Below are positions 1,902 through 27,660 of a stretch of DNA of 28,061 nucleotides, one piece after another; position 1 is the first letter of the stretch; the number at the start of each line of letters is the position of its first letter. The position numbers and the translations under genes are program-made. Below the pieces are notes generated by a model. The model was given only the letters and a program-made list of their open reading frames with translations. It ran no database searches and was not told the DNA's origin. The stretch comes from a virus (lineage: Duplodnaviria; Heunggongvirae; Uroviricota; Caudoviricetes). The DNA lies in IMG/VR virus record IMGVR_UViG_3300036956_000151, one strand, 5' to 3'.

Positions 1902-1978
1902 GGGCCGTTAGCTCAGTTGGTTAGAGCAGGCGACTCATAATCGCTTGGTCGCTGGTTCAAGTCCAGCACGGCCCACCA
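1902..1978 (+). tRNA. tRNA with CAU anticodon; anticodon and T arms match what I recall of enterobacterial ileX (tRNA-Ile2, lysidine type) better than elongator tRNA-Met; 77 nt including encoded CCA
   Basis: Acceptor stem GGGCCGT/ACGGCCC, D-arm TAGCTCAGTTGGTTAGAGCA, anticodon loop CTCATAA, T-arm GGTTCAAGTCC, 3' CCA; sits directly after rpoD as ileX does in E. coli. Confidence 0.9.
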
Positions 1979-2028
1979 TACGTATCAAGCACTTAGGCCA
2001 GCCTCACGAGGGCTGGCCTTTTGCTTTC
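1933..2028 (+). repeat. att direct repeat copy 1 (tRNA 3' half from anticodon loop plus terminator); part of the intact tRNA
   Basis: Near-identical to 12407-12502 and 27555-27660. Confidence 0.85.
1996..2027 (+). terminator. Rho-independent terminator of the tRNA (GGCCAGCC-N7-GGCTGGCC followed by TTTTGCTTT); repeated with the att copies at 12470-12501 and 27620-27651
   Basis: 8-bp GC stem plus T-run seen directly. Confidence 0.65.
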
Positions 2029-2036
2029 TGGGCCAA

Positions 2037-3371: not shown

Positions 3372-3580
3372 GGTGGCTGCTCCTTGTGTGCGGTGATGTT
3401 CTCCGCAACCCCTTCCTACGGGGGCGGCGGAACCGTGCGGGGCTAGGAATACCGGACACAAGGAACCGGCCAGCCTCGCGGCTGCCCCACACGGCCCGCC
3501 ATTGAACAGGCGTCGCCATGCTTACCGACGTAAAAAAACCGCTTGCGCGGCCCTGTCGGCCTTGTGATTTCCGGGTTCCT
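3372..3580 (-). promoter_or_regulatory. Conserved ~200-bp structured non-coding leader (module 1), homologous to 15029-15235 in element B; possible promoter/5'-UTR or small RNA
   Basis: Alignable by eye with element B (shared GTTCTCCGC, GAACCGTGC, CCATGCTTACCGACGTAAAAAAACCGC-type blocks); conserved stems with compensatory changes; ends in SD plus ATG. Confidence 0.4.
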
Positions 3581-8194: not shown

Positions 8195-8520
8195 GCCGCA
8201 CCAGCCTTTCGGGCCTTCGCTTCGACGAGCGCCATTTCATTGGCAGCGAACTCCTGACCTGCGCTGCCGGCGGCCTCAATGACTTCGACCGGCAGGCGGT
8301 ACTGCGCGAAGGCGCACGACTCGCCGAAGCGGTTGGGACGTTGGATAGTCTCCTTCGCGACGCCCCAGCCCCATTTGGTCAGGAGGAAAACGACGGCGGC
8401 AGTCCGGTAGATGCCCAGCGTCCTCCAGCTTGCAATGGGGCCAATGGCATTGCCAGCCAGAAACGCAGCGAGCAGGCGGGCGCTCTGGGTGCCGTGCTTG
8501 GGGTAGGTGCCGGCCATCAT
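8191..8520 (-). CDS. Hypothetical protein, 109 aa
   Basis: Start overlaps upstream stop (TAATG); stop overlaps downstream start (ATGA). Confidence 0.6.
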   Translation of the reverse strand: MMAGTYPKHGTQSARLLAAFLAGNAIGPIASWRTLGIYRTAAVVFLLTKWGWGVAKETIQRPNRFGESCAFAQYRLPVEVIEAAGSAGQEFAANEMALVEAKARKAGAA

Positions 8521-8750
8521 TACGCCACCTCGCCAGAGGTAAGGGCCTCAACGGCCGCGGCGTCCCACAGCAAGAAGCGGTTGCGGCACTTGACCGGGCG
8601 CAGGCCGAAGTAATGCCCGTCACGGCACAGGGCGGCGCGCAAGGTCTGCGGGCGCACCTTCAGGACGGCGGCGGCCTCAATGGTGGAGTAGTTGCGCAGG
8701 ATGGACGCGATGTCCGTGCGCTTGGTGGTGGGTGTGTTTTGGTGTTGCAT
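8520..8750 (-). CDS. Small HTH DNA-binding protein, 76 aa, AlpA/excisionase-like; first gene of the replication operon
   Basis: STIEAAAVLKVRPQTLRAALCRDGHYFGLRPVKCRNRFLLWDAAAVEAL; AGGAGA SD; same motif pattern as the element B gene at 23916-24098. Confidence 0.7.
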   Translation of the reverse strand: MQHQNTPTTKRTDIASILRNYSTIEAAAVLKVRPQTLRAALCRDGHYFGLRPVKCRNRFLLWDAAAVEALTSGEVA

Positions 8751-8843
8751 TCGCTGGTTCTCCTGCTCGGAAAACCACCGTTGAGAGTCGCCGGATGCAA
8801 CTCAATCAACGCTGGCGAACGCAATGTGTTGCGCCGAAGTCTA

Positions 8844-8859
8844 TTAACAGCCGGCTGTT
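8844..8859. promoter_or_regulatory. Perfect 16-bp palindrome TAACAGCCGGCTGTTA in the promoter region of the element A replication operon
   Basis: Lies between the stop at 8863 and the HTH gene start at 8750. Confidence 0.35.
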
Positions 8860-8862
8860 ATG

Positions 8863-9456
8863 TTACCCGCCATTTCCAAGATGCTGATTTTTAAGGGTCT
8901 TTAGGCTGTTTAGAAATTTGCGCTCTTCGCTACCCCCCTCGGTTCTAAGTCCGTGCTCGTCAGTGAATACAACATACCCCGCGTCGCGCTGCACGACTCC
9001 ACGGCTCTCCAGTTTGTCCAGCATATCCGATGCAGTCAGGAGTCTGTTCTTGTCCCATATGGCCTTTGCCTCTAGTCGCCAGCGGATAGTAGCGGGCCGT
9101 CCTCCTTTGCGTACGACACGCTTCTGCGACGCGGACCTAGCCTGCTGTGCTCTTGCTGCTGCGGCGTAATGCTGCATCATCGGAGACAAGGGACCGACAG
9201 CAAGAATGGCAGACCTTGCAGCCGCAACGGACGCGGCGTGCGCAGCATCAACCATTGGCTGCATCCACTGACGCGTTTTTTCAGGCCACGTCTCCCTTAG
9301 AAGTCCAAGAGGCGGCTCCTGCAAAGGTAGGGTCAGCGAGCTTCTCAGCACCGACTCGAACACGGCGAGCTGGATTTCCTCGGCCCCGCGCCTGAAGTCA
9401 GCCGCGAATGATGCGGACTGACCTCCCATCCCCTGTTTTTTCAAATGCTTTGTCAT
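8863..9456 (-). CDS. Hypothetical protein, 197 aa; contains a GGRPA motif shared with the syntenic 252-aa protein of element B
   Basis: AAGGAG SD 6 nt upstream; directly preceded by conserved hairpin module 2. Confidence 0.6.
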   Translation of the reverse strand: MTKHLKKQGMGGQSASFAADFRRGAEEIQLAVFESVLRSSLTLPLQEPPLGLLRETWPEKTRQWMQPMVDAAHAASVAAARSAILAVGPLSPMMQHYAAAARAQQARSASQKRVVRKGGRPATIRWRLEAKAIWDKNRLLTASDMLDKLESRGVVQRDAGYVVFTDEHGLRTEGGSEERKFLNSLKTLKNQHLGNGG

Positions 9457-9477
9457 CGCGCTCCTTCAAGCGCCTTC

Positions 9478-9552
9478 AAAAGAGGCACCGCGCCAGGCGG
9501 GTGAAGGTTCCCGCTTTTCGGTTGGCCGACCTAGGCGCGGTGGTGGTACTCG
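9478..9552. terminator. Conserved nested-hairpin element (module 2): outer stem CACCGCGCC/GGCGCGGTG enclosing inner hairpin GCGGG-N8-CCCGC plus T4; terminator-like in both orientations; homologous copy at 25028-25104
   Basis: Near-identical flanks in both elements; inner stem differs by compensatory changes (GCGGG/CCCGC versus CGGGG/CCCCG). Confidence 0.45.
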
Positions 9553-9553
9553 G

Positions 9554-9934
9554 TCAGGCGGCAATCGCCTCATTCAAGGGACACGGCTGAATCAGCACGT
9601 CAGCCGGGAGGCCGAGGCCAGAAGACAGGCGGCGAATCATCGTCACCGACAGCGGGCGCGTCCGGTTCATGATGTCGGCCACCCTCCCCCGCGGGCCGAT
9701 GTAAGGCTCCAAGTCCTTGCGCGTCAATCCGCGGGACTCCATGACGTACTCAAGGAAGGCCACCGGGTCCGGGGCTTTAATCAGGAAGTGCGCCTTTTCG
9801 TAGGCTTCCACCAGCATGGCGAGCACCTCCAGGCGGTCGGCCTCGGGGCTTCCATCAGGGGCATCCCACAGGCGTTCGATATCGGCCAGGGCTTCGTTGT
9901 GCTCGGCTTCGGTTCGGATGGGCTTCAGTTCCAT
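9554..9934 (-). CDS. higA: HigA-family antitoxin (HTH), 126 aa
   Basis: Immediately downstream of the HigB-type toxin gene; AGGAG SD; C-terminal HTH-like segment LTRKDLEPYIGPRGRVADIMNRTRPLSVTMIRRL. Confidence 0.8.
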   Translation of the reverse strand: MELKPIRTEAEHNEALADIERLWDAPDGSPEADRLEVLAMLVEAYEKAHFLIKAPDPVAFLEYVMESRGLTRKDLEPYIGPRGRVADIMNRTRPLSVTMIRRLSSGLGLPADVLIQPCPLNEAIAA

Positions 9935-9942
9935 GGCGGCTC

Positions 9943-10236
9943 CTAGATGGTTTCAGCGTCTATCCGGTCGTACTCGGCATGAGTGCCCACGAAACGGATG
10001 AACATCATGGTGGAGGTGTAACGCACAGCCGCCACCAACCGGTAGTCATTGCCCTTGATGTTGAACACCACGCGGTTGTTCGCCAGAAAGCTGGCGTTCC
10101 GGTGCGCGGCCTTGATGTCGGCCGGGGTTTGCCAGGTGGCCCGGCTTGCCTCGGCGTACCAACCACGCAAAGGGGTTTCGGCTTGCGGATGCTTCTCCCA
10201 AAACTCGCGCAGTGCTCGCAGTGCAATGATGTGCAT
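9943..10236 (-). CDS. higB: HigB-family type II toxin (mRNA interferase), 97 aa
   Basis: MHIIALRALREFWEKHP...NNRVVFNIKGNDYRLVAAVRY...IRFVGTHAEYDRIDAETI; toxin-first order. Confidence 0.85.
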   Translation of the reverse strand: MHIIALRALREFWEKHPQAETPLRGWYAEASRATWQTPADIKAAHRNASFLANNRVVFNIKGNDYRLVAAVRYTSTMMFIRFVGTHAEYDRIDAETI

Positions 10237-10319
10237 GACTCAATCTAGCATGTTACCGTTTTGGTAGCAAACACTCAGGCTTTCACCACCCGCAGCCCGG
10301 CCGCCTGCTCTTCGCCCGG

Positions 10320-10604
10320 TCAGGCGGCGATGCGTGCCACGGGTGCCCGGTCCTTGGCGCGCTCGCCGGCTGTCCAGAGGTCGCGCTGCGTTTGCAGGCG
10401 CAGCCAGTAGCCGGGCGAGGTGCCTAGCGCCTCGTGCAGGCGCAGGTCCATATCGGCGGTGACGGCGGCATGCCCGTGCAGGATGCGGGACAACATCACC
10501 CGGCTGATGCCCACATGGGCGGCAAAGGCGGTCACGCTCATATCGAGGTCTTCCAGCCAGCCGGCCAGGATTTCGCCAGGGGTTGAAGGGTCGTGCATGT
10601 CCAT
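10320..10604 (-). CDS. HigA-like antitoxin (XRE-type HTH), 94 aa
   Basis: PGEILAGWLEDLDMSVTAFAAHVGISRVMLSRILHG...ITADMDLRLHEALGTSPGYWLRLQTQRDL; follows the killer-protein toxin gene. Confidence 0.8.
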   Translation of the reverse strand: MDMHDPSTPGEILAGWLEDLDMSVTAFAAHVGISRVMLSRILHGHAAVTADMDLRLHEALGTSPGYWLRLQTQRDLWTAGERAKDRAPVARIAA

Positions 10605-10615
10605 GATGTCGGGCC

Positions 10616-10894
10616 TCAGTGGTAATCCAGATAGTCCAGCAGTTCCACGTTTCCGCCATCGAAGCGGAACACAAGCCGCCAGTTGGCTTGCACCGTCATG
10701 GCGAGGAAGCCGGCGCGGTCGCCGGACAGGCCATGCAGGCGCCAGGACGGGCGGGCGAGGTCTTCCGGGCCGGCGGCGGCGTTCAGGGCGGTCAGCATTT
10801 CCCGTAGGCGCTTGGCGTGAATCGGCTGAATGCCGGCCTGCTTGCCGGTCAGGAAGAAGGCTTCAAGCCCCTTGTGTCGGAACGATAGAATCAT
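10616..10894 (-). CDS. RelE/ParE-superfamily toxin of the HigB killer-protein type, 92 aa
   Basis: MILSFRHKGLEAFFLTGKQAGIQPIHAKRLREMLTALNAA...LLDYLDYH. Confidence 0.85.
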   Translation of the reverse strand: MILSFRHKGLEAFFLTGKQAGIQPIHAKRLREMLTALNAAAGPEDLARPSWRLHGLSGDRAGFLAMTVQANWRLVFRFDGGNVELLDYLDYH

Positions 10895-10925: not shown

Positions 10926-12242
10926 TCAGGTCACAACCCGCAACCCAGGCGCCTGCCCCTCGTCCGGCTGCTCGATGCCGGCCTGCTCCAGAATCCAGCC
11001 CTCTATCTTGATGTGCCACAGGGTCAGCAGGTCGAGCGGCCGGCGGCGATAGTGCTTCTCGGCCAAGGCGCTGGGCTTGTGCCCCTGAATCTGCGCCACC
11101 ACGCCGACGGGCACCTCGCACCACTCCGCCAGGGTGCCGAAGGAGCGGCGCAGGTCATGCAGCGAGAATGGCGGCAGGCCGGCGGCTTCCATCGCTTTGC
11201 GCAGGGGTTTGAGGACTTCCACGATACGGCCATCCGCGGCCGCAGGGCTTGAGAACACCCACTCATTCCGGCGCGGCAGAGAGGCCAGCAGCGAGGCGAC
11301 GAAGGGCGTCAGCGGGATGATGCGGCCCTCTTCCTCCACCTTGTCGGCGATGTGCAGGGACTTCCATTGAAAATCCACGTCAGCCCATTTCAGGCCGGCC
11401 AGTTCCTCGCGCCTCGCGCCGGTCAGGAGCAAGGTTTGCAGGTAGGCGGCGTGCACCGGGTTCCCCAGCTTGCGGACATGCTCGAACCACAGCGGCAATT
11501 GTTCGCGGCGCAGGCTGTCGCCTTTGGTCTTCACCGCCTGCACTTGGTCCCGCACTTCGCTGGTGCGGCAGGCATCCGCACGAACGAGGCCGGCATACTC
11601 CGGGCGCTCGGCACACCAGCCAAGGAAGGCGCGCACGAGGCGGAATATCTTTGCGGCCTGCGTCGCCCCGCGGGCGTTGTTGTCCTGCATCCATGCCGTG
11701 ATGCGTGCCGGGGTCAGGTCCAATAGGCGCACATGCAGCAGCGGATGTACCATGCCGGGCAAAGTGTATTCCCCCTGCCCAGCCTTGCGCCCTCGCGTGA
11801 TGCGCTCGCCGCCGGGCTTTATGGCCTGTGCATGGTCGCGCTGTGAGGACTCGCCCCACTTGTGCGAGCGGGCCAGAACATAGGCGGCCCATGCCTCGCC
11901 AACGGTCACTTCCTGCCGTGCGGACTCTTCCCGCTTGGCCTCGATGGCGGCGCGCTTGTCGGCCTTCTCTTGGCGCGGGTCGATGCCTTGGTCAATCAGG
12001 GTTTGCAGGCGGCGGGCTTCGGCGCGGGCTGCGTCAATGCCCCACGCGCGCACGTCGCCAATCGTGATGCGAAGAGCCTTGCCGTTCAGGCGGCTTTGGA
12101 AGATGAACCCGCGCGCCTCGCTGCCGGGTGTGGCACGCACTGCGAGGCCGGGCGCTTCCGTGTCCCACAGGAAGGCTTGAGCGGTGCCGGTCGGGCATTC
12201 AAATTCGCGGATGCGGCCGGCGGTCAGCTTGTTGCGTGCCAT
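10926..12242 (-). CDS. int: Tyrosine recombinase, P4-type integrase (element A); ATG at 12242 preferred over the ORF-track start at 12248
   Basis: ~438 aa; catalytic-domain blocks LTGARREELAGL, HDLRRSFGT, HKPSALAEKHYRRR; GGAGAA SD; adjacent to att copy 2. Confidence 0.9.
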   Translation of the reverse strand: MARNKLTAGRIREFECPTGTAQAFLWDTEAPGLAVRATPGSEARGFIFQSRLNGKALRITIGDVRAWGIDAARAEARRLQTLIDQGIDPRQEKADKRAAIEAKREESARQEVTVGEAWAAYVLARSHKWGESSQRDHAQAIKPGGERITRGRKAGQGEYTLPGMVHPLLHVRLLDLTPARITAWMQDNNARGATQAAKIFRLVRAFLGWCAERPEYAGLVRADACRTSEVRDQVQAVKTKGDSLRREQLPLWFEHVRKLGNPVHAAYLQTLLLTGARREELAGLKWADVDFQWKSLHIADKVEEEGRIIPLTPFVASLLASLPRRNEWVFSSPAAADGRIVEVLKPLRKAMEAAGLPPFSLHDLRRSFGTLAEWCEVPVGVVAQIQGHKPSALAEKHYRRRPLDLLTLWHIKIEGWILEQAGIEQPDEGQAPGLRVVT

Positions 12243-12256
12243 GTTCAAGTTCTCCG

Positions 12257-12287: not shown

Positions 12288-12406
12288 GGATTCTAGAACA
12301 CGCTTCAATTTCCATCAACGTCAAAAACGGAATGAATGCTTTATTTTCAATGCCTTGCTGTTTTTATGAAACGCTATTCAATGTCAAAAAACCCCGTAAC
12401 CATTCA

Positions 12407-12502
12407 ACTCATAATCGCTTGGTCGCTGGTTCAAGTCCAGCACGGCCCACCATACGTATCAAGCACTTAGGCCAGCCTCACGAGGGCTGGCCTTTTGCTT
12501 TC
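12407..12502 (+). repeat. att direct repeat copy 2 (junction between element A and element B); tRNA 3' half only, no 5' half
   Basis: ACTCATAATCGCTTGGTCGCTGGTTCAAGTCCAGCACGGCCCACCA plus terminator; preceded by unrelated AT-rich sequence. Confidence 0.85.
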
Positions 12503-12510
12503 CGGCGCCG

Positions 12511-15028: not shown

Positions 15029-15235
15029 GGTGATGTTCCTTATTTGCGGTCTTGTTCTCCGCTACCCAGCCGCCAAGCTGGGTGAGCAGAACCGTGCAGG
15101 TTGGCGGACCGGAATAAGGACCGGCAGGGTTTCCCCTCCCGCACGGCCCCGCCCAATGAGGCGATACCATGCTACGGACGTAAAAAAACCGCGCAGTGCG
15201 GCGGTTGTCCGCCTTATTTACCCGGGCCGCCAAGC
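15029..15235 (-). promoter_or_regulatory. Conserved structured leader (module 1), element B copy
   Basis: Homologous to 3372-3580; includes hairpin CCGC-N5-GCGG followed by A7 (terminator-like on the minus strand). Confidence 0.4.
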
Positions 15236-18676: not shown

Positions 18677-19351
18677 ATGTCAGCGGGGACGAGGTGGGGA
18701 AGGGCTGGATTTCCCGAAGTCGCCATTCGTACCGATGCCGAGGGCCGCTACTGCCTGAATGATCTGCACAAGGCTGCTGGCGACCTGCCGAAGGATCAGC
18801 CGGCCAAATATTTCGCCAATCAACAAGCGAAAGACCTGATCTCCGAAATCGGAGATCACTCTGTTCATGTGGTCCGTGGCTATGGGAAGGAGCAAGGCAC
18901 CTACGTCTGCAAGGAACTGGTTTACGCCTACGCCATGTGGATCAGCCCAGCCTTCAGCCTGAAAGTGATTCGCGCCTACGATGCCATCGTGCGCGGCGAC
19001 TTCGGATCGGAATACCTCCCGGCCATCCTTCACGAAATTGACCAGCGCCTTTCGATCCGGCTGGTTGATCTTGAGGCCGCCATCGAAACCCGCATTCACG
19101 GCGAGCTCGCCAAGCAGCGCACCGGCATCCGCCACGGCGTCACCGCCGGCCAGGTATGGCACGAACACGGCTTCCCGGCTGATGCCGGAGGATTCGCCGG
19201 GGTCGTAGCTGTCGTTGGTCGCCACTACAAGGCCGTGACGATGGCTGGTGAAGCCCTGAAATCAGTTCAGGGCATGCGCTTTGGCTCGATTCGCAGCCCT
19301 TCGCGCACTGCGAAACCTACGGTGATGTACGGTGAATCTTGGGCATTCTGA
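18677..19351 (+). CDS. KilA-N domain protein, 224 aa
   Basis: RYCLNDLHKAAG...YFANQQAKDLISEI...GTYVCKELVYAYAMWISPAFSLKVIRAYDA matches the KilA-N signature; one of very few plus-strand island genes. Confidence 0.75.
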   Translation: MSAGTRWGRAGFPEVAIRTDAEGRYCLNDLHKAAGDLPKDQPAKYFANQQAKDLISEIGDHSVHVVRGYGKEQGTYVCKELVYAYAMWISPAFSLKVIRAYDAIVRGDFGSEYLPAILHEIDQRLSIRLVDLEAAIETRIHGELAKQRTGIRHGVTAGQVWHEHGFPADAGGFAGVVAVVGRHYKAVTMAGEALKSVQGMRFGSIRSPSRTAKPTVMYGESWAF

Positions 19352-20332: not shown

Positions 20333-20622
20333 TCCTCACCGCCCTCGGAATCGGCGCTGGCGGGAGCGATCTGCACGCGGGTGGCGGGTTCGGCGATGGC
20401 CTGGCGAATGCCCTCCAGCGCCACCAGGCAGGCATGCAGCGCGGCGCGCACGGCTTCAGGGGTGTTCGTGCCTGCTTCCAGTGCTCTGGCCTCTGCGGCA
20501 GCAAGGACGGCCTCCGGCGTCGCCCTTGCGACAATGTCACGAAGGGTATCGACGCATGTGGTGGCCAGGGCGTGAGCGATGCCGTCGATTTCACGGGGGA
20601 AATCTGCGTATTTATTAATCAT
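20329..20622 (-). CDS. Hypothetical protein, 97 aa
   Basis: ATGA overlaps at both ends. Confidence 0.5.
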   Translation of the reverse strand: MINKYADFPREIDGIAHALATTCVDTLRDIVARATPEAVLAAAEARALEAGTNTPEAVRAALHACLVALEGIRQAIAEPATRVQIAPASADSEGGEE

Positions 20623-21212
20623 TTTTTCTTCCTCGGCGGGGTCGCCAGTTTGAGACGGAGCCGACGCTCCGCGGCCATGGCGTCGGCTGCTGATTTCTTC
20701 AGGCGGTCGGCGGCGGCGTTGAGGATGGATCCCCCGTGCAGATCGAGGAACGCGTCACCGTTCAGGTCGGTGAGTCGGTTGATCGCATCTATCACGTTTT
20801 GGGCGTCTCGCTGGATCGTTGGGATCACGGAAGTGGCCGCCTCAATTTTCTGTTGCAAGGCAATGATCGCCTGAAGGTCACGCGACCGCATGCGGTCCCA
20901 CTGGTCGAGAAGGTGAGGCGTCATCCCCCGCGGCACCCCGGCCTCAAAGTCGTCCGAAAGGCCGAAAAGGTACTCGGTGGAAACCTCATAAATCCGGGCA
21001 GCATCGCGAATCAGGCGGATCGGGACGGAGTTGGTGTCCGTTGCATTCTCGACTTTTGACAACTTCGACGGATTCGCGTAGCCAAGCCGGCGCGCGGCTT
21101 CGGACAGGGACAGATTGCACAATTCCCGGGACGCCTTCAGGCGCAGGCCGATGGTTTTGACCAATTCCGACTGCACATGTCGGACCGGCGGGGCCTCCTG
21201 GATTACTCGCAT
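20619..21212 (-). CDS. XRE/Cro-CI-type HTH regulator, 197 aa; internal ATG preferred over the ORF-track start
   Basis: LSLSEAARRLGYANPSKLSKVENATDTNSVPIRLIRDAARIYEVSTEYLFGLSDD; AAGGA SD. Confidence 0.7.
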   Translation of the reverse strand: MRVIQEAPPVRHVQSELVKTIGLRLKASRELCNLSLSEAARRLGYANPSKLSKVENATDTNSVPIRLIRDAARIYEVSTEYLFGLSDDFEAGVPRGMTPHLLDQWDRMRSRDLQAIIALQQKIEAATSVIPTIQRDAQNVIDAINRLTDLNGDAFLDLHGGSILNAAADRLKKSAADAMAAERRLRLKLATPPRKKK

Positions 21213-21249
21213 GTATTTATCCTTCCGTGGTTCGGAGGTGACGGCATAA

Positions 21250-21483
21250 TCAGTGCGCCACCTCGTCGGCGTCGTCCCCGTAGAGGTGCGAGCCAAGCTC
21301 CTCCGCCAGAGCCCCGACGAACACGCGAATTTGTTGGTGGAACTCGCCGATGATCGTTTCGGCGACTTGCCGCGCGAGGTTCGGAGCCGCGCCGAAGGTC
21401 TCGACAAACACGCCAGCAAGCGCGTCGACTTCGGCGTCGATGGCCTTTTCGTTGGCGGGGGGCATGGGGAATGTGGTATTCAT
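21250..21483 (-). CDS. Hypothetical acidic protein, 77 aa
   Basis: Internal ATG of the ORF-track entry; weak SD. Confidence 0.4.
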   Translation of the reverse strand: MNTTFPMPPANEKAIDAEVDALAGVFVETFGAAPNLARQVAETIIGEFHQQIRVFVGALAEELGSHLYGDDADEVAH

Positions 21484-23915: not shown

Positions 23916-24098
23916 TTAGGCCACCTGGCCGGTGATGCGCGCCACCGCATCAGCAGGCCACAGGAGGCGCCCGTTCGGCAGGCGGGCCGGCTTGAGGCCG
24001 CAAAAATGCCCATTGCGCCAAACGGCGGTACGGATGCTGGCGGGCTGGCGGTCAATCTGCTTGGCCAGCGTCGCAGTCGTAATTAGGTGCTGTTGCAT
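23916..24098 (-). CDS. Small HTH DNA-binding protein, 60 aa, AlpA/excisionase-like; first gene of the element B replication operon
   Basis: ATLAKQIDRQPASIRTAVWRNGHFCGLKPARLPNGRLLWPADAV; GGAG SD; same pattern as 8520-8750. Confidence 0.65.
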   Translation of the reverse strand: MQQHLITTATLAKQIDRQPASIRTAVWRNGHFCGLKPARLPNGRLLWPADAVARITGQVA

Positions 24099-24137
24099 CG
24101 CGGTCACTCCGTGTGGTTGGATGTGACGCACTCTGCT

Positions 24138-24245
24138 TACCGGTACTTTTTGGGATCCTTACCGCCGATAAGGATCCCCAGCAGTGGCAAGGGTTTGGGG
24201 GGTGACCGCCGGTTTGCTTACCGGCGACTGCCGCCGGTAAGCGTT
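24138..24245. promoter_or_regulatory. Operator cluster: four CTTACCG motifs arranged as inverted repeats (GGGATCCTTA-N7-TAAGGATCCC at 24152-24178; CTTACCGGCG-N5-CGCCGGTAAG at 24217-24241)
   Basis: Upstream of the HTH gene that heads the replication operon. Confidence 0.4.
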
Positions 24246-25001
24246 TCAAAGGAGCGCGGTTAGCTCGCTCCAACGGTCATCCCATTCGGGGAAATTCCGG
24301 CTAATGACGATGCGAGCGGCGCTCTTGGTGAGAAAGCCCTTGCTCACCATACAAAAAGCGAACTGAGCGGGGTCCCATAGTGCCGGCCGGCCTCCCCCTC
24401 GTCCTGGCGTGTATTCCCTGGCGGTCTTCATCCACCCCGGGCAATCAGAAATTGTTCGGGACCAATTCTCTGGCCTGGTGCTCTTGGGGTGTGGAAAAGC
24501 TTCCGACAGCTGTTTGGATGTTACGAGGCTGTGAGGGGGTGGCGATGCAGCGGGGATGCTTGGATTTAGCTCCTCAGGAGCGCTCCCCTGTCGGTCATTC
24601 GTACCAAGATCACTTCTCCGAACGAAAAGCCCCGTTCGCGTCACGACTGGCATTGGAATTACCTTCCCGTCGCCGCCCTTCTCCCAGCACGGCGCCCAAT
24701 ACGCCCCGTCCTTGTCTGGACGGGTGAAGGCGGGAACGTCGGTTCCGACTTCCCCATTCAGTGCACTCGCCAAGTCACGGCGGCTGACGGGAATGTAGAT
24801 GAAGTGCTTGCGCTGCGGCTCCTCGCTGAGCTTGACGATGGTTCCGTCAGGATTCGCACGGAGACGCACAGCCTGCCTATCCTCCCCGAGGAGAAAGTAG
24901 ACGCGCAACTGGCCTTCCAGGCCTGCTGCGATCAGGGAATCTTCTGAACAACAAAAGGTCTTGGCGGCTTCCGATAGTCGGATGTATTCGGGTTCAAACA
25001 T
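24246..25001 (-). CDS. Hypothetical protein, 251 aa; syntenic with the element A 197-aa protein and shares its GGRPA motif; internal ATG chosen because the upstream DNA is conserved module 2
   Basis: GGAG SD; module 2 immediately upstream. Confidence 0.6.
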   Translation of the reverse strand: MFEPEYIRLSEAAKTFCCSEDSLIAAGLEGQLRVYFLLGEDRQAVRLRANPDGTIVKLSEEPQRKHFIYIPVSRRDLASALNGEVGTDVPAFTRPDKDGAYWAPCWEKGGDGKVIPMPVVTRTGLFVRRSDLGTNDRQGSAPEELNPSIPAASPPPHSLVTSKQLSEAFPHPKSTRPENWSRTISDCPGWMKTAREYTPGRGGGRPALWDPAQFAFCMVSKGFLTKSAARIVISRNFPEWDDRWSELTALL

Positions 25002-25027
25002 TCTCGCGCTCCATCTGCGCACCCATC

Positions 25028-25104
25028 GAAAAAGGCACCGCGCCAGCGGGGCGATGGAATCCCCGTTTTCGGTTGGCCGACCTAGGCGCGGTGGTGGTGC
25101 TCGG
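25028..25104. terminator. Conserved nested-hairpin element (module 2), element B copy
   Basis: Outer stem CACCGCGCC/GGCGCGGTG, inner CGGGG-N9-CCCCG plus T4. Confidence 0.45.
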
Positions 25105-25359
25105 TCAGCTACGGTTCCGACGTGCAGCCTCGATGCCGGCCCGCAGTTCTTCGTCCGTGGCCGGGCGGTCGTCCTCGTCCTTACCGTCCCATACAAAGTG
25201 CTTTTCCGGAGAGATATTGCGGACCGCCGTAGCCAGTTCCTTACGCTGCTGTTCAGCCAGGGCAGAGAGCTCGTTGGCCTTCCGAAATGCCGGGTCGCCC
25301 TTGCTGGCTTCCTCGGCATAAGCGCGAGGGTCGAAGGAGCCGGGTTTGTAGTCGCTCAT
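25105..25359 (-). CDS. Hypothetical protein, 84 aa, charged; third gene coupled to the HigBA pair
   Basis: Strong SD GGAGAGGAG; begins about 20 nt after the antitoxin stop. Confidence 0.6.
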   Translation of the reverse strand: MSDYKPGSFDPRAYAEEASKGDPAFRKANELSALAEQQRKELATAVRNISPEKHFVWDGKDEDDRPATDEELRAGIEAARRNRS

Positions 25360-25381
25360 GGTTCGCTCCTCTCCTGCTCGG

Positions 25382-25690
25382 TCAGGCAGCTTCCGCGTGC
25401 ATTGGCCGAATCTCTCGTGCCACCTTCTCGCCTATTGCCGCCTCGGCCTGCTTCAGGTCAAAGGCTGTTTGCAGATTCATCCAGAATTGCGGCGTGGTGT
25501 CGAAGTAGCGGGCGAGGCGCAGGGCAGTGTCAGGCGTCACCGCCCGGCGCTCGCGCACGATGTCGTTAATGCGCGGGGCAGGAACGTGCAAATCCATTGC
25601 CAGGGCGTTGGCGCTGAGTCCAAGCGGCAGCAGGTATTCTTCCCGCAGAATCTCGCCCGGATGAATGGGGCGCATATTGTTCGTAGCCAT
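25382..25690 (-). CDS. higA: HigA-family antitoxin (XRE-type HTH), 102 aa
   Basis: IHPGEILREEYLLPLGLSANALAMDLHVPAPRINDIVRERRAVTPDTALRLARYF; GAGGGA SD. Confidence 0.8.
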   Translation of the reverse strand: MATNNMRPIHPGEILREEYLLPLGLSANALAMDLHVPAPRINDIVRERRAVTPDTALRLARYFDTTPQFWMNLQTAFDLKQAEAAIGEKVAREIRPMHAEAA

Positions 25691-25701
25691 GTTCAAATCC
25701 C

Positions 25702-25983
25702 TCAGTGGTAATCCACGATTTCGACGCCCTCCGGCCCCGTAGCCGTCCAAACGAAGCACACGCGCCACTGGTCATTGATGCGGATGCTGTGCTGTCCGGC
25801 TCGGTTCCCACTGAGCGCTTCGAGACGATTGCCCGGGGGCGAGCGCAAGTCCTTCAGCTCTTCGGCAGCATCAAGCATTTGCAGTTTTCGCTCTGCGACA
25901 GCTTCAATGTTCCGGAATCGCTTCGGGTGCAGCCCTTCGTAAAGGGCTTCGGTGTCTTCGCACCGAAATGAACGGATCGTCAT
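25702..25983 (-). CDS. higB: HigB killer-protein toxin (RelE/ParE superfamily), 93 aa
   Basis: MTIRSFRCEDTEALYEG...PPGNRLEALSGNRAGQHSIRINDQWRVCFVWTATGPEGVEIVDYH. Confidence 0.85.
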   Translation of the reverse strand: MTIRSFRCEDTEALYEGLHPKRFRNIEAVAERKLQMLDAAEELKDLRSPPGNRLEALSGNRAGQHSIRINDQWRVCFVWTATGPEGVEIVDYH

Positions 25984-26040: not shown

Positions 26041-27369
26041 TTACTTGACGGCCCTGAGGACTGTCGCGGCCCCCTCTGTCGGCTGCTCGATGCCGGCCTG
26101 TTCCAGAATCCACGCCTCAATCTTGATGTGCCACATACGTAGCAGGTCGAGGGGCCGGCGGCGGTAGTGCTTTTCAGCCAGCGCAGACGGCTTGTGCCCT
26201 TGAATCTGCGCCACCACGCCCACCGGGCATTCCACCCATTCGGACAGGGTGCCGAAGGAGCGGCGCAAGTCATGCAGTGAGAACGGCGGCAGGCCGGCGG
26301 CTTCCATCGCGTTCTTGTGGGGCTTGAGCGGCTCCTGGAGGCGGCCAGATGCCGCGGAGGGGCTGGAGAACACCCACTCATTGCGGCGCGGCAGGGCTGC
26401 CAGCAAGGCCGCAACATAGGGCGTCAGCGGGATGATGCGCTGCCCTTCCACTTTGTCCCGGATGGTCAGGGACTTCCATTGAAAATCGATGCAATCCCAC
26501 GTCAGGCCGGCGAGCTCTTCGCGGCGGGCTCCGGTAAGCAGCAGGGTTTGCAGGTAGGCCACGTGCACCGGATTGCCCAGCTTCCTGACGTGCTCGAACC
26601 ACAGCGGCAACTGCTCCCGCTGCAGGCTGTCGCCCTTGGCTCTGGCCGCCTGCACCTGGTCCCGCACTTCGCTGGTACGGCAGGCGTCGGCCCGGACAAG
26701 GCCGGCATACTCGGGCCGCTCGGCACACCAGCCAAGGAAGGCCCGCACCAAGCGGAAGTTCTTCGCTGCTTCGGTGGCCCCCCGGACGTTGTTCGCCTGC
26801 ATCCAGGCCGTTATGCACGCCGGCGTCAGGTCGATCAGGCAGACCGCCAGCAGCGGATGAACCATGCCCTGCAATGAGAACTCGCCCTGCCCCTTCTTGC
26901 GGCCTCGCGTGATGCGCTCGCCACCGGGCTTGATGGCCTTCTCGTGGTCCCGCTTGGACGATTCGCCCCACTTGTGGGAGCGGGCGGCAACGTAGGCGGC
27001 CCACGCCTCGCCAACGGTCACGGACTGGCGGCGCTGCTCTTCCTGCCCTGCCACCACTGCGGCCTTCTTGGCCTCCACTGCGGCCAGCTTGTCGGCTTTC
27101 TCCTGCCGGGGATCGGTGCCCTGGTCGACAACGGTTTGCAACCGGCGAGCTTCGGCGCGGGCATCGTCCAGGTTCCACGCCCGCACGTCGCCGATGGTTA
27201 CGCGGATTGTTTGCCGGTTTAGCTTGGCCTCGAAGATGAACGACTTCGCGCCCGTGGTCGCACGCACAGCGAGGCGCGGCGCGTCGGTGTCCCAGAGGAA
27301 GGATTGCTTGGCGTCGGCGGGGCAGGAGAAGCGGCGGATTCGGTCGGGCGTGAGGCGTTCGCGTTGCAT
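26041..27369 (-). CDS. int: Tyrosine recombinase, P4-type integrase (element B), 442 aa
   Basis: Collinear with the element A integrase with long identical stretches (HDLRRSFGT, VGVVAQIQGHKPSALAEKHYRRRPLDLL); GGAG SD; adjacent to att copy 3. Confidence 0.9.
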   Translation of the reverse strand: MQRERLTPDRIRRFSCPADAKQSFLWDTDAPRLAVRATTGAKSFIFEAKLNRQTIRVTIGDVRAWNLDDARAEARRLQTVVDQGTDPRQEKADKLAAVEAKKAAVVAGQEEQRRQSVTVGEAWAAYVAARSHKWGESSKRDHEKAIKPGGERITRGRKKGQGEFSLQGMVHPLLAVCLIDLTPACITAWMQANNVRGATEAAKNFRLVRAFLGWCAERPEYAGLVRADACRTSEVRDQVQAARAKGDSLQREQLPLWFEHVRKLGNPVHVAYLQTLLLTGARREELAGLTWDCIDFQWKSLTIRDKVEGQRIIPLTPYVAALLAALPRRNEWVFSSPSAASGRLQEPLKPHKNAMEAAGLPPFSLHDLRRSFGTLSEWVECPVGVVAQIQGHKPSALAEKHYRRRPLDLLRMWHIKIEAWILEQAGIEQPTEGAATVLRAVK

Positions 27370-27554: not shown

Positions 27555-27660
27555 CGACTCATAATCGCTTGGTCGCTGGTTCAAGTCCAGCACGGCCCAC
27601 CAATAGCATCAAGCACTTAGGCCAGCCTCACGAGGGCTGGCCTTTTGCTTTCCGGCGCCG
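27555..27660 (+). repeat. att direct repeat copy 3 (right end of element B); tRNA 3' half plus terminator, a few substitutions after CCA
   Basis: Same 46-nt tRNA 3' segment and terminator; shares the tail CGGCGCCG with copy 2. Confidence 0.85.

Follow-up and report, generated by a model that had tools for sequence, protein, structure and literature searches.

Apparently unrelated proteins fill a hypervariable slot between the int-alpA RNA and the alpA-like gene of two tandem PICI-like islands

Introduction

In the Staphylococcus aureus pathogenicity islands (SaPIs), the master repressors named Stl are syntenic and highly divergent, and each of them binds a different helper-phage protein. For the Gram-negative phage-inducible chromosomal islands (PICIs), how helpers induce alpA, and whether any repressor takes part, is unknown (PMC6092414). 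Unknown, too, is the function of the int-alpA RNA motif, Rfam family RF02996, described by Weinberg et al. in 2017 (PMC5737381). Here we analyze the DNA of a Caudoviricetes virus, IMG/VR record IMGVR_UViG_3300036956_000151, as a single stretch of 28,061 nucleotides (nt; hereafter, the window), in which two related islands, A and B, are inserted in tandem at one tRNA-Met gene. Our subject is a pair of genes, one in each island, which we call X-A and X-B and which encode proteins of 197 and 251 amino acids (aa). An earlier note on this DNA had pointed to their shared position and to sequences that differ almost completely except for a GGRPA-containing stretch, and had taken the combination as typical of specificity determinants such as repressor/antirepressor or immunity proteins.

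The Gram-negative PICIs offer the closest comparison. Like the islands described in PMC6092414, those of the window are of the 10–15 kb class, lie at a tRNA gene, and have their core genes (integrase, AlpA-type regulator, and primase/helicase) in the orientation of the integrase, and the open reading frames (ORFs) scanned in them include no structural genes. In layout, with the integrase, regulator, and primase/replicase in one orientation between att repeats, they fit the structural definition of Gram-negative PICIs (islands of ~10–18 kb), and they are treated here as PICI-like. They differ in their probably Zoogloea-like hosts and in a small helix-turn-helix (HTH) protein that weakly matches HTH_17 and not Phage_AlpA, and the PICI literature that we searched has neither an X gene nor the RNA. 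The RNAs of the window resemble the int-alpA family in being full-length copies that score above the gathering threshold and in their location, with the integrase region on their upstream side and an alpA-type gene on their downstream side. The family name implies an RNA directly before alpA, whereas in the window, and in most of the copies surveyed below, a variable ORF stands between the two. A literature search returned no function for the int-alpA RNA and no description of a gene between it and alpA.

Structured RNA Upstream of the X Genes

X-A (8863–9456, minus strand, 197 aa) and X-B (24246–25001, minus strand, 251 aa) were both found as ORFs at the coordinates and in the shared position that the earlier note had given. 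Both lie between toxin–antitoxin genes and a small AlpA-like HTH gene. That first reading had overlooked an int-alpA RNA upstream of both. In each island, X is the first ORF past this RNA, which lies at 9473–9541 in island A and at 25023–25092 in island B, on the minus strand, with RF02996 scores of 71.9 and 63.0 bits, respectively, over model positions 1–71 in each case (gathering threshold 35.8). The RNAs belong to a block of ~100 nt directly upstream of the X genes that is 83% identical between the islands over 106 nt (9456–9557 versus 25004–25108) and is the only DNA conserved between them outside the integrase region. Its upstream limit falls precisely on the stop codon with which the cargo genes end, and its other limit lies 16–21 nt before the start of X.

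In island A, the RNA folds into an outer stem (9534–9542 with 9486–9494) that encloses hairpin 1 (9520–9531) and hairpin 2 (9497–9514); hairpin 2 of island B is at 25047–25065. The hairpin-2 stem reads GCGGG/CCCGC in island A and CGGGG/CCCCG in island B, and across 83 distinct copies of the RNA, it is CCGGG/CCCGG, GCGGG/CCCGC, or CGGGG/CCCCG: The stems of the RNA are maintained through compensatory changes. In both islands, a purine word complementary to the loop of hairpin 2 sits 11–13 nt past the outer stem, within a 3′ tail that the structure line of the RF02996 covariance model draws as unpaired. The predicted pairing is between CCUUCA (9502–9507) and UGAAGG (9473–9478) in island A, and between CCAUCG (25052–25057) and CGAUGG (25023–25028) in island B, all on the minus strand. 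As MAFFT fails to align a tail of variable offset, we assessed the covariation with an anchor-free search for complements and a table of loop classes by tail words. Among the 83 copies, CCATC loops were accompanied by GATGG in 3 of 3 cases, CCTTC by GAAGG in 26 of 32, CCCTTG by CAAGGG in 14 of 19, CCCTG by CAGGG in 4 of 5, and CCCTA by TAGGG in 3 of 5, and mismatched combinations of loop class and tail word were rare. These patterns indicate that the hairpin-2 loop and the purine word form a pseudoknot, a structure that several independent double changes support.

The pseudoknot word is repeated a few bases farther on as the Shine–Dalgarno sequence of X. In the X-A leader (9457–9472, minus strand), a GCGC-clamped mini-hairpin at 9458–9473 presents the Shine–Dalgarno sequence UGAAGGAG ahead of the ATG at 9456. 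The X-B leader (25002–25022, minus strand) has a GCGC-clamped mini-hairpin at 25006–25020 that presents an unusual one, GAUGGAG, itself complementary to the hairpin-2 loop, ahead of the ATG at 25001. Because the pseudoknot word recurs as the ribosome-binding site of X, we take X to be the ORF served by the int-alpA RNA, and the RNA to be, as far as its sequence predicts, the 5′ leader of X. We also considered that the RNA is a plain intrinsic terminator and rejected this as the general explanation: In the copies of the window, the outer stem runs into a U-tract, which many others lack.

Survey of the Slot

To place the two loci in a wider context, a pattern search for the RNA core in a collection with one genome per species identified at least 120 places, 78 of them with the extended motif. 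The census of the slot is based on the 73 other copies for which 500 nt or more of sequence was available downstream, the copies totaling 80 when the two of the window are included. An ORF of 129–388 aa starts 10–42 nt past the RNA core in 68 of the 73 copies, giving an occupancy of 93%, in comparison with 35% at random positions in these loci (counting any ORF of 100 aa or longer whose start is no more than 60 nt away). On the other side of the RNA, an integrase-sized ORF usually ends 12–18 nt before the motif and small cargo genes intervene in a minority of cases, as they do in the window; the interval from integrase to RNA is an optional cargo site, and X is a core gene. As to the ORF after X, 34 candidates match Phage_AlpA and 23 match HTH_17; it is followed by ORFs of primase or helicase size.

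The carriers of the RNA are mostly Rhodocyclales, Burkholderiales, Thiobacillus, and Xanthomonadales (Beta- and Gammaproteobacteria), with some bins labeled as other phyla, and ten copies of the RNA core are in IMG/VR viral contigs. Some of the RNA–X modules come from contigs assigned to bins of Patescibacteria, Nitrososphaerota, Caldilineales, or Bryobacteraceae (loci L001, L018, L034, L053, and others); these are likely mis-binned contigs of mobile elements, since they hardly differ in sequence from copies in Proteobacteria. In Escherichia coli, the same order was found in 25 of 5,426 genomes, with the integrase and the RNA followed by a “hypothetical protein” of 309–313 aa and an HTH regulator. 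Examples of the slot gene are those of strains ATCC 43886 (CS032_RS10430, 309 aa; locus L121, 6082–7011) and KCJ3K291 (FR957_RS02265, 313 aa; L122, 6078–7019). [quoted passage not shown]

The occupants of the slot differ widely. The 68 slot proteins fall into 35 groups unrelated by BLAST, and the X proteins were related in only 2 of the 10 locus pairs whose AlpA proteins are 80–100% identical and in 1 of the 13 pairs at 70–80%. The boundaries of similarity are sharp. An element of Zoogloea oleivorans (L022) shows 90–92% identity to island B over the stretch that begins at the integrase and stops with the final base of the RNA (25023), past which it diverges, and another locus (L054) matches island A at 81–90% as far as 9456, where the start codon of X-A lies. 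Within the gene, the C-domain of X-B is joined to three different N-domains, the N-domain of X-B occurs with another C-terminus in the protein P0017, and the largest group of slot proteins is linked solely through shuffled N- and C-terminal modules. The alignments thus show change of X by replacement and not by gradual divergence, with the slot content exchanged by recombination whose breakpoints lie at the RNA/X start and between the domains of X. What had been noted for two islands, a conserved position with divergent sequence, extends across the survey, in which the slot is filled in other islands and flanked by conserved neighbors, while a relationship between X-A and X-B themselves is undetectable.

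X-A and X-B as Genes

Both X genes belong to small families. For X-A, whose rare family has a GG(R)P...W signature at residues 118–126, a set of 5.8 billion clustered proteins yielded 14 homologues, of which 13 are close to full length (194–210 aa) with 56–91% identity, and a set of 1.84 billion representatives yielded 13 matches; X-B, which divides into an N-domain (residues ~1–135) and a C-domain (~150–251), has 6 homologues. All homologues with fetched context lie in the same slot, after an integrase or a toxin–antitoxin pair and before an ORF of 61–77 aa. The start that gives a 251-aa X-B appears correct because its homologues begin at MFEP, and the leader also supports it; an alternative ORF of 357 aa (to 25319) was rejected, as it would cross the RNA motif and an 84-aa ORF.

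The G+C content at third codon positions (GC3) is the lowest of the island for both genes, 0.59 for X-A and 0.635 for X-B in comparison with 0.77–0.87 for the integrase and the alpA-like gene, which is consistent with recent acquisition. Such values are low for the host and, together with the fact that ORFs of at least 100 aa begin close to a third of random positions in these loci, would fit non-functional chance ORFs in GC-rich DNA. We nevertheless give that explanation a negligible chance: Full-length homologues in the same slot, at 56–92% identity, come from independent metagenomes and genomes, a Shine–Dalgarno word stands at proper spacing before each X start, and the occupancy of the slot is far above the random level. 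Judged by these sequence features, X-A and X-B are real genes.

Comparison of X-A and X-B

The claim that X-A and X-B differ almost completely was upheld by pairwise and profile alignment, both of which were negative. No relationship was detected by BLASTP (best E = 2.8), by a family hidden Markov model (E = 3.1 in a database of 68 sequences), or by profile–profile comparison, where hhalign gave a probability of 0.9% and an alignment out of register with GGRPA. That word is the sole 5-mer that the two proteins share (residues 118–122 of X-A and 203–207 of X-B), with a Trp 2–4 residues later in both, and when composition was preserved, a shared 5-mer arose in 4.05% of 20,000 shuffles. Members of the X-A family with as little as ~20% identity all keep GG...W, which is invariant, and the segment therefore matters there. 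In the family of the X-B C-domain, the word reads GGGR[P/R/Q]ALW, the Pro position being P, R, Q, or L; from two members the word is entirely missing, P0020 having GKRGVLALW and L022 GRRGIQSIW in its place. The GGRPA stretch was thus not sustained as a trace of relationship, and describing the two proteins by a shared GGRPA has little value; the word is coincidental or at most a convergent Gly/Arg loop, with no shared domain.

Under a looser pattern, GG[RKAS]P[AKR], there are 8 matching slot proteins, which belong to 5 unrelated groups in comparison with 0.25 groups expected, and this level was reached in none of 300 shuffles; we regard the enrichment as a lead only because the pattern was defined after the data had been seen. 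As separate observations, the word GG[A/S/R]P[K/R/A] is found in unrelated slot proteins of L020, L057, L067, L102, L041, and L039, and in one slot family it stands at the extreme C-terminus after “ANW,” as in VANWLPSGGAPKTPGG. It may be a short functional motif, subject to the same post hoc reservation.

One could imagine from these patterns that X-A and X-B are very remote homologues that have kept GGRPA as a functional element, for example a minor-groove arm of AT-hook or Hin type before an HTH. The invariance of GG...W in the X-A family, one member of which reads GGRPAIW against the GGRPALW of X-B, and the spread of the looser pattern over unrelated groups would fit this. We consider it very improbable: The looser pattern was tested post hoc, the exact 5-mer has the chance expectation given above, the X-B C-domain family does not conserve the Pro or, in two of its members, any of the word, the profile alignment is both negligible and out of register with the motif, and GGRPA falls in a low-confidence loop of both structure models. 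The arm KRVVRKGGRP of X-A recalls the “GRP” arms of AT-hook and Hin-type proteins in preceding a modeled helical or winged domain, but it differs in having no Pfam or structural match, and the segment is unconserved in X-B.

Two further motifs were followed among the slot proteins. A unifying C-terminal module, “...PK..V..WL...G.S...A..IA.IIRP,” present in other slot proteins and aligned by eye with the C-termini of X-A and X-B, was abandoned, as hhalign joined only two of those other subfamilies through it (89%) and neither protein of the window. The N-terminal motif “W...EAA.L..GIDP” is present in 13 slot proteins and absent from X-A and X-B.

Searches for Function

Neither X-A nor X-B matched a family in Pfam, NCBIfam, PHROGs, or PADLOC. 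Across the 68 slot proteins, Pfam assigned two to DUF6387, a family without known function, and one to Phage_integrase and gave no others, PHROGs gave almost nothing, and none of the 5027 PADLOC models matched any of the 68 or X-A, X-B, and their relatives. A tblastn search of X-A and X-B against 50,697 phage records returned no match, and a phage origin of X was rejected as far as these records go. At the level of structure, Foldseek found no match below E = 0.1 for the X models in PDB and BFVD, and for X-A nothing fell below E = 0.5.

The AlphaFold2 model of X-A is usable at residues 121–197 only, where it consists of two helices, three strands, and a further helix with predicted local distance difference test (pLDDT) scores of 76–91; this domain follows the basic arm KRVVRKGGRP. 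The modeled fold resembles a winged helix, and a possible winged-helix DNA-binding domain is hinted at by the sequence pattern of this part and by the best profile match of X-A in PDB, the winged helix of MecI, at an insignificant E = 0.18; the PDB profile searches gave nothing else.

Downstream Repeats and the AlpA-Like Subtype

The intergenic regions downstream of X carry operator-like repeats that differ between the islands. Between X-A and the alpA-like gene (8751–8862, minus strand), there is a palindrome, ACAGCCGGCTGT, at 8847–8858, which is kept wherever homologues of X-A occur; in L130, it reads CAGCTAGCTG, a symmetric change. The corresponding region of island B (24099–24245, minus strand) has TTACCGGC-type repeats, arranged as inverted repeats at 24218–24240 and 24152–24178 and a single site at 24136–24145. 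Four or five sites of this type are kept in every carrier of the X-B C-domain, and in island B, the two inverted repeats are perfect. For both families examined, the C-terminal part of X, the repeats behind it, and the AlpA-like subtype form one co-inherited set. Co-variation was tried as a means to tell which of X and the AlpA-like protein binds the repeats and failed, as both co-segregate with them in the families with fetched context.

Proposed Role of X

Going by the sequences compared, we interpret X-A and X-B as two unrelated, element-specific proteins that each occupy the first-gene slot, hypervariable in content, of a regulatory module that is itself conserved. In small PICI-like integrative elements of Beta- and Gammaproteobacteria, the module runs from the integrase and optional cargo through the int-alpA RNA, X, and the alpA-like HTH gene to the replication genes. 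We favor a role of X as an element-specific regulator, with a confidence just short of an even chance, because of the single-gene occupancy of the slot, the fixed structured leader, the separation from the cargo site, the linkage of the X C-terminus to alpA, and the freely exchanged N-terminus. Under such a scheme, the RNA would gate the translation of X, with the hairpin-2 loop acting as an anti-Shine–Dalgarno sequence for which the first purine word and the real Shine–Dalgarno sequence compete. The C-terminal part of X would be tied to the element's own alpA region and its operator-like repeats, and the exchangeable N-terminal part could set the target to which the element responds, for example a helper phage or a co-resident element. 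The two islands, with 78%-identical integrases and the same att site, might coexist in tandem because X, the AlpA-like protein, and the replicon all differ between them.

By analogy, X would play in these islands the role that Stl has in the staphylococcal ones. As with Stl, a single modular gene beside the integration and regulation region is unrelated between otherwise similar islands, as expected of a determinant of helper specificity. Unlike X, Stl is divergently transcribed and has a recognizable HTH; X is co-directional with alpA, matches no HTH family, and has a structured RNA ahead of it. A more ambitious proposal, in which the int-alpA RNA, X, and alpA together are the missing sensing switch of Gram-negative PICI-like satellites, with X as a pseudoknot-gated sensor of the helper phage or co-resident element and with domains that track an arms race, appears distinctly unlikely in this full form.

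Several points weigh against a regulator. Searches of Pfam, NCBIfam, PHROGs, and PDB and searches with Foldseek linked no X protein significantly to regulatory or DNA-binding families, and the model of X-B is of low confidence (pLDDT 51.8). The operator-like repeats track both X and the AlpA-like subtype, and they could be AlpA sites. Translational gating is deduced solely from complementarity between words that, if Shine–Dalgarno-like, are purine-rich anyway, and the match of loop and Shine–Dalgarno sequence is partly generic. Hypervariability, low GC3, and domain shuffling are equally expected of anti-phage or interference effectors, and the literature searched on Gram-negative PICIs describes neither a repressor nor any gene that separates int from alpA. 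The earlier proposal of a specificity determinant (repressor, antirepressor, or immunity protein) is thus compatible with the variable slot but finds no match to DNA-binding, repressor, or defense families; the winged-helix-like domain of X-A and the operator-like repeats particular to each X family are weak hints in its favor.

The main competing view makes X an effector encoded by one gene, whether anti-phage, anti-helper, or interfering, and the slot a defense or accessory hotspot expressed with alpA on induction of the island; it explains the variability as well as a regulator does. Its strengths are the extreme turnover by replacement, the atypical composition of X, the shuffling of its domains, and the lack of any detected housekeeping or regulatory domain; satellites are also said to carry defense genes in fixed hotspots. 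In comparison with the defense hotspots of P4-like satellites and PICIs, the slot is similar in its fixed position and in the swapping of unrelated genes by recombination, but it holds a single gene, without a PADLOC match, that is attached to a conserved leader for translation; nor does any slot protein have an enzymatic domain in Pfam. The number of genes in known hotspots varies, down to none, whereas here one ORF of modest size stands at a fixed distance from the leader RNA in nearly every copy. Recognizable cargo, in the form of toxin–antitoxin pairs, is placed elsewhere, upstream of the RNA, and the C-domain of X is co-inherited with the alpA region. For these reasons, we hold an effector to be somewhat unlikely. 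If X were one nonetheless, dozens of so far unclassified candidates for defense or interference proteins could be drawn from the slot. A further reading, which we find improbable, makes X an accessory factor of the AlpA-like protein or of the integrase, such as a co-activator, an anti-activator, or a partner in recombination directionality, specific to the AlpA subtype. The joint inheritance of X, repeats, and AlpA-like subtype in the two families examined and the position of X directly upstream of alpA in every case speak for it, but in the wider survey, near-identical AlpA proteins adjoin unrelated X proteins. A directionality factor matched to the integrase is unlikely because the two islands combine closely similar integrases and the same att site with unrelated X proteins.

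The analysis places the int-alpA RNA, a family described earlier without an explanation, not directly ahead of alpA but as the leader of a near-universally filled and extremely variable one-gene slot. The X gene, the pseudoknot of loop and purine word, and the repeats downstream of X are testable candidates for the alpA switch, and they can be tested in cultivable hosts because strains of E. coli have the same layout.

Organization of the Window

The left end of the island array is a tRNA-Met gene at 1902–1978 on the plus strand. Three attachment (att) repeats, each consisting of the 3′ half of the tRNA and a terminator hairpin, are found at 1931–2031 (plus strand), ~12405–12505, and ~27555–27655 and delimit island A (~10.4 kb) and island B (~15 kb). 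The minus strand encodes almost all genes of the islands, in the order tyrosine integrase, HigB/HigA-type toxin–antitoxin, X, AlpA-like HTH, and replication genes. The best DNA matches among the fetched loci are Zoogloea genomes, and the host is therefore probably a Zoogloea-like betaproteobacterium.

The tyrosine integrase of island A has 440 aa (10926–12248, minus strand) and that of island B, to which the 78% identity refers, 442 aa (26041–27369, minus strand). The cargo between integrase and RNA occupies 9554–10894 in island A and 25105–25983 in island B, both on the minus strand. In island A, it consists of two HigB/HigA-type pairs (10616–10894 with 10320–10604, and 9943–10236 with 9554–9934), and in island B of a HigB-like toxin (25702–25983), an HTH antitoxin ORF (25382–25768), and the 84-aa ORF (25105–25359).

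Downstream of X, the small AlpA-like HTH protein of island A (8520–8750, minus strand, 76 aa) heads the replication genes and has a weak HTH_17 match in Pfam (E = 8e-4). Its counterpart in island B (23916–24098, minus strand) has 60 aa from the ATG at 24098, with an ORF open to 24131, and no Pfam match; the two genes are homologous, with 40% identity. The replication genes are of PriCT_2+AAA_25 type in island A and encode a DnaB_C-like helicase in island B.

Near the far end of each island, there is a C4 antisense RNA (Rfam RF01695), at 3420–3506 (minus strand, 67.5 bits) and 15078–15160 (minus strand, 48.1 bits). Antisense RNAs of the C4 type control the icd/ant operons of P1 and P7 and immunity in P4. 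Finally, a KilA-N domain protein is encoded at 18677–19351 on the plus strand within island B, the opposite strand to that of nearly all island genes, and lies next to an Xre-type HTH gene at 20619–21419 (minus strand); it may be a second regulatory node of island B.

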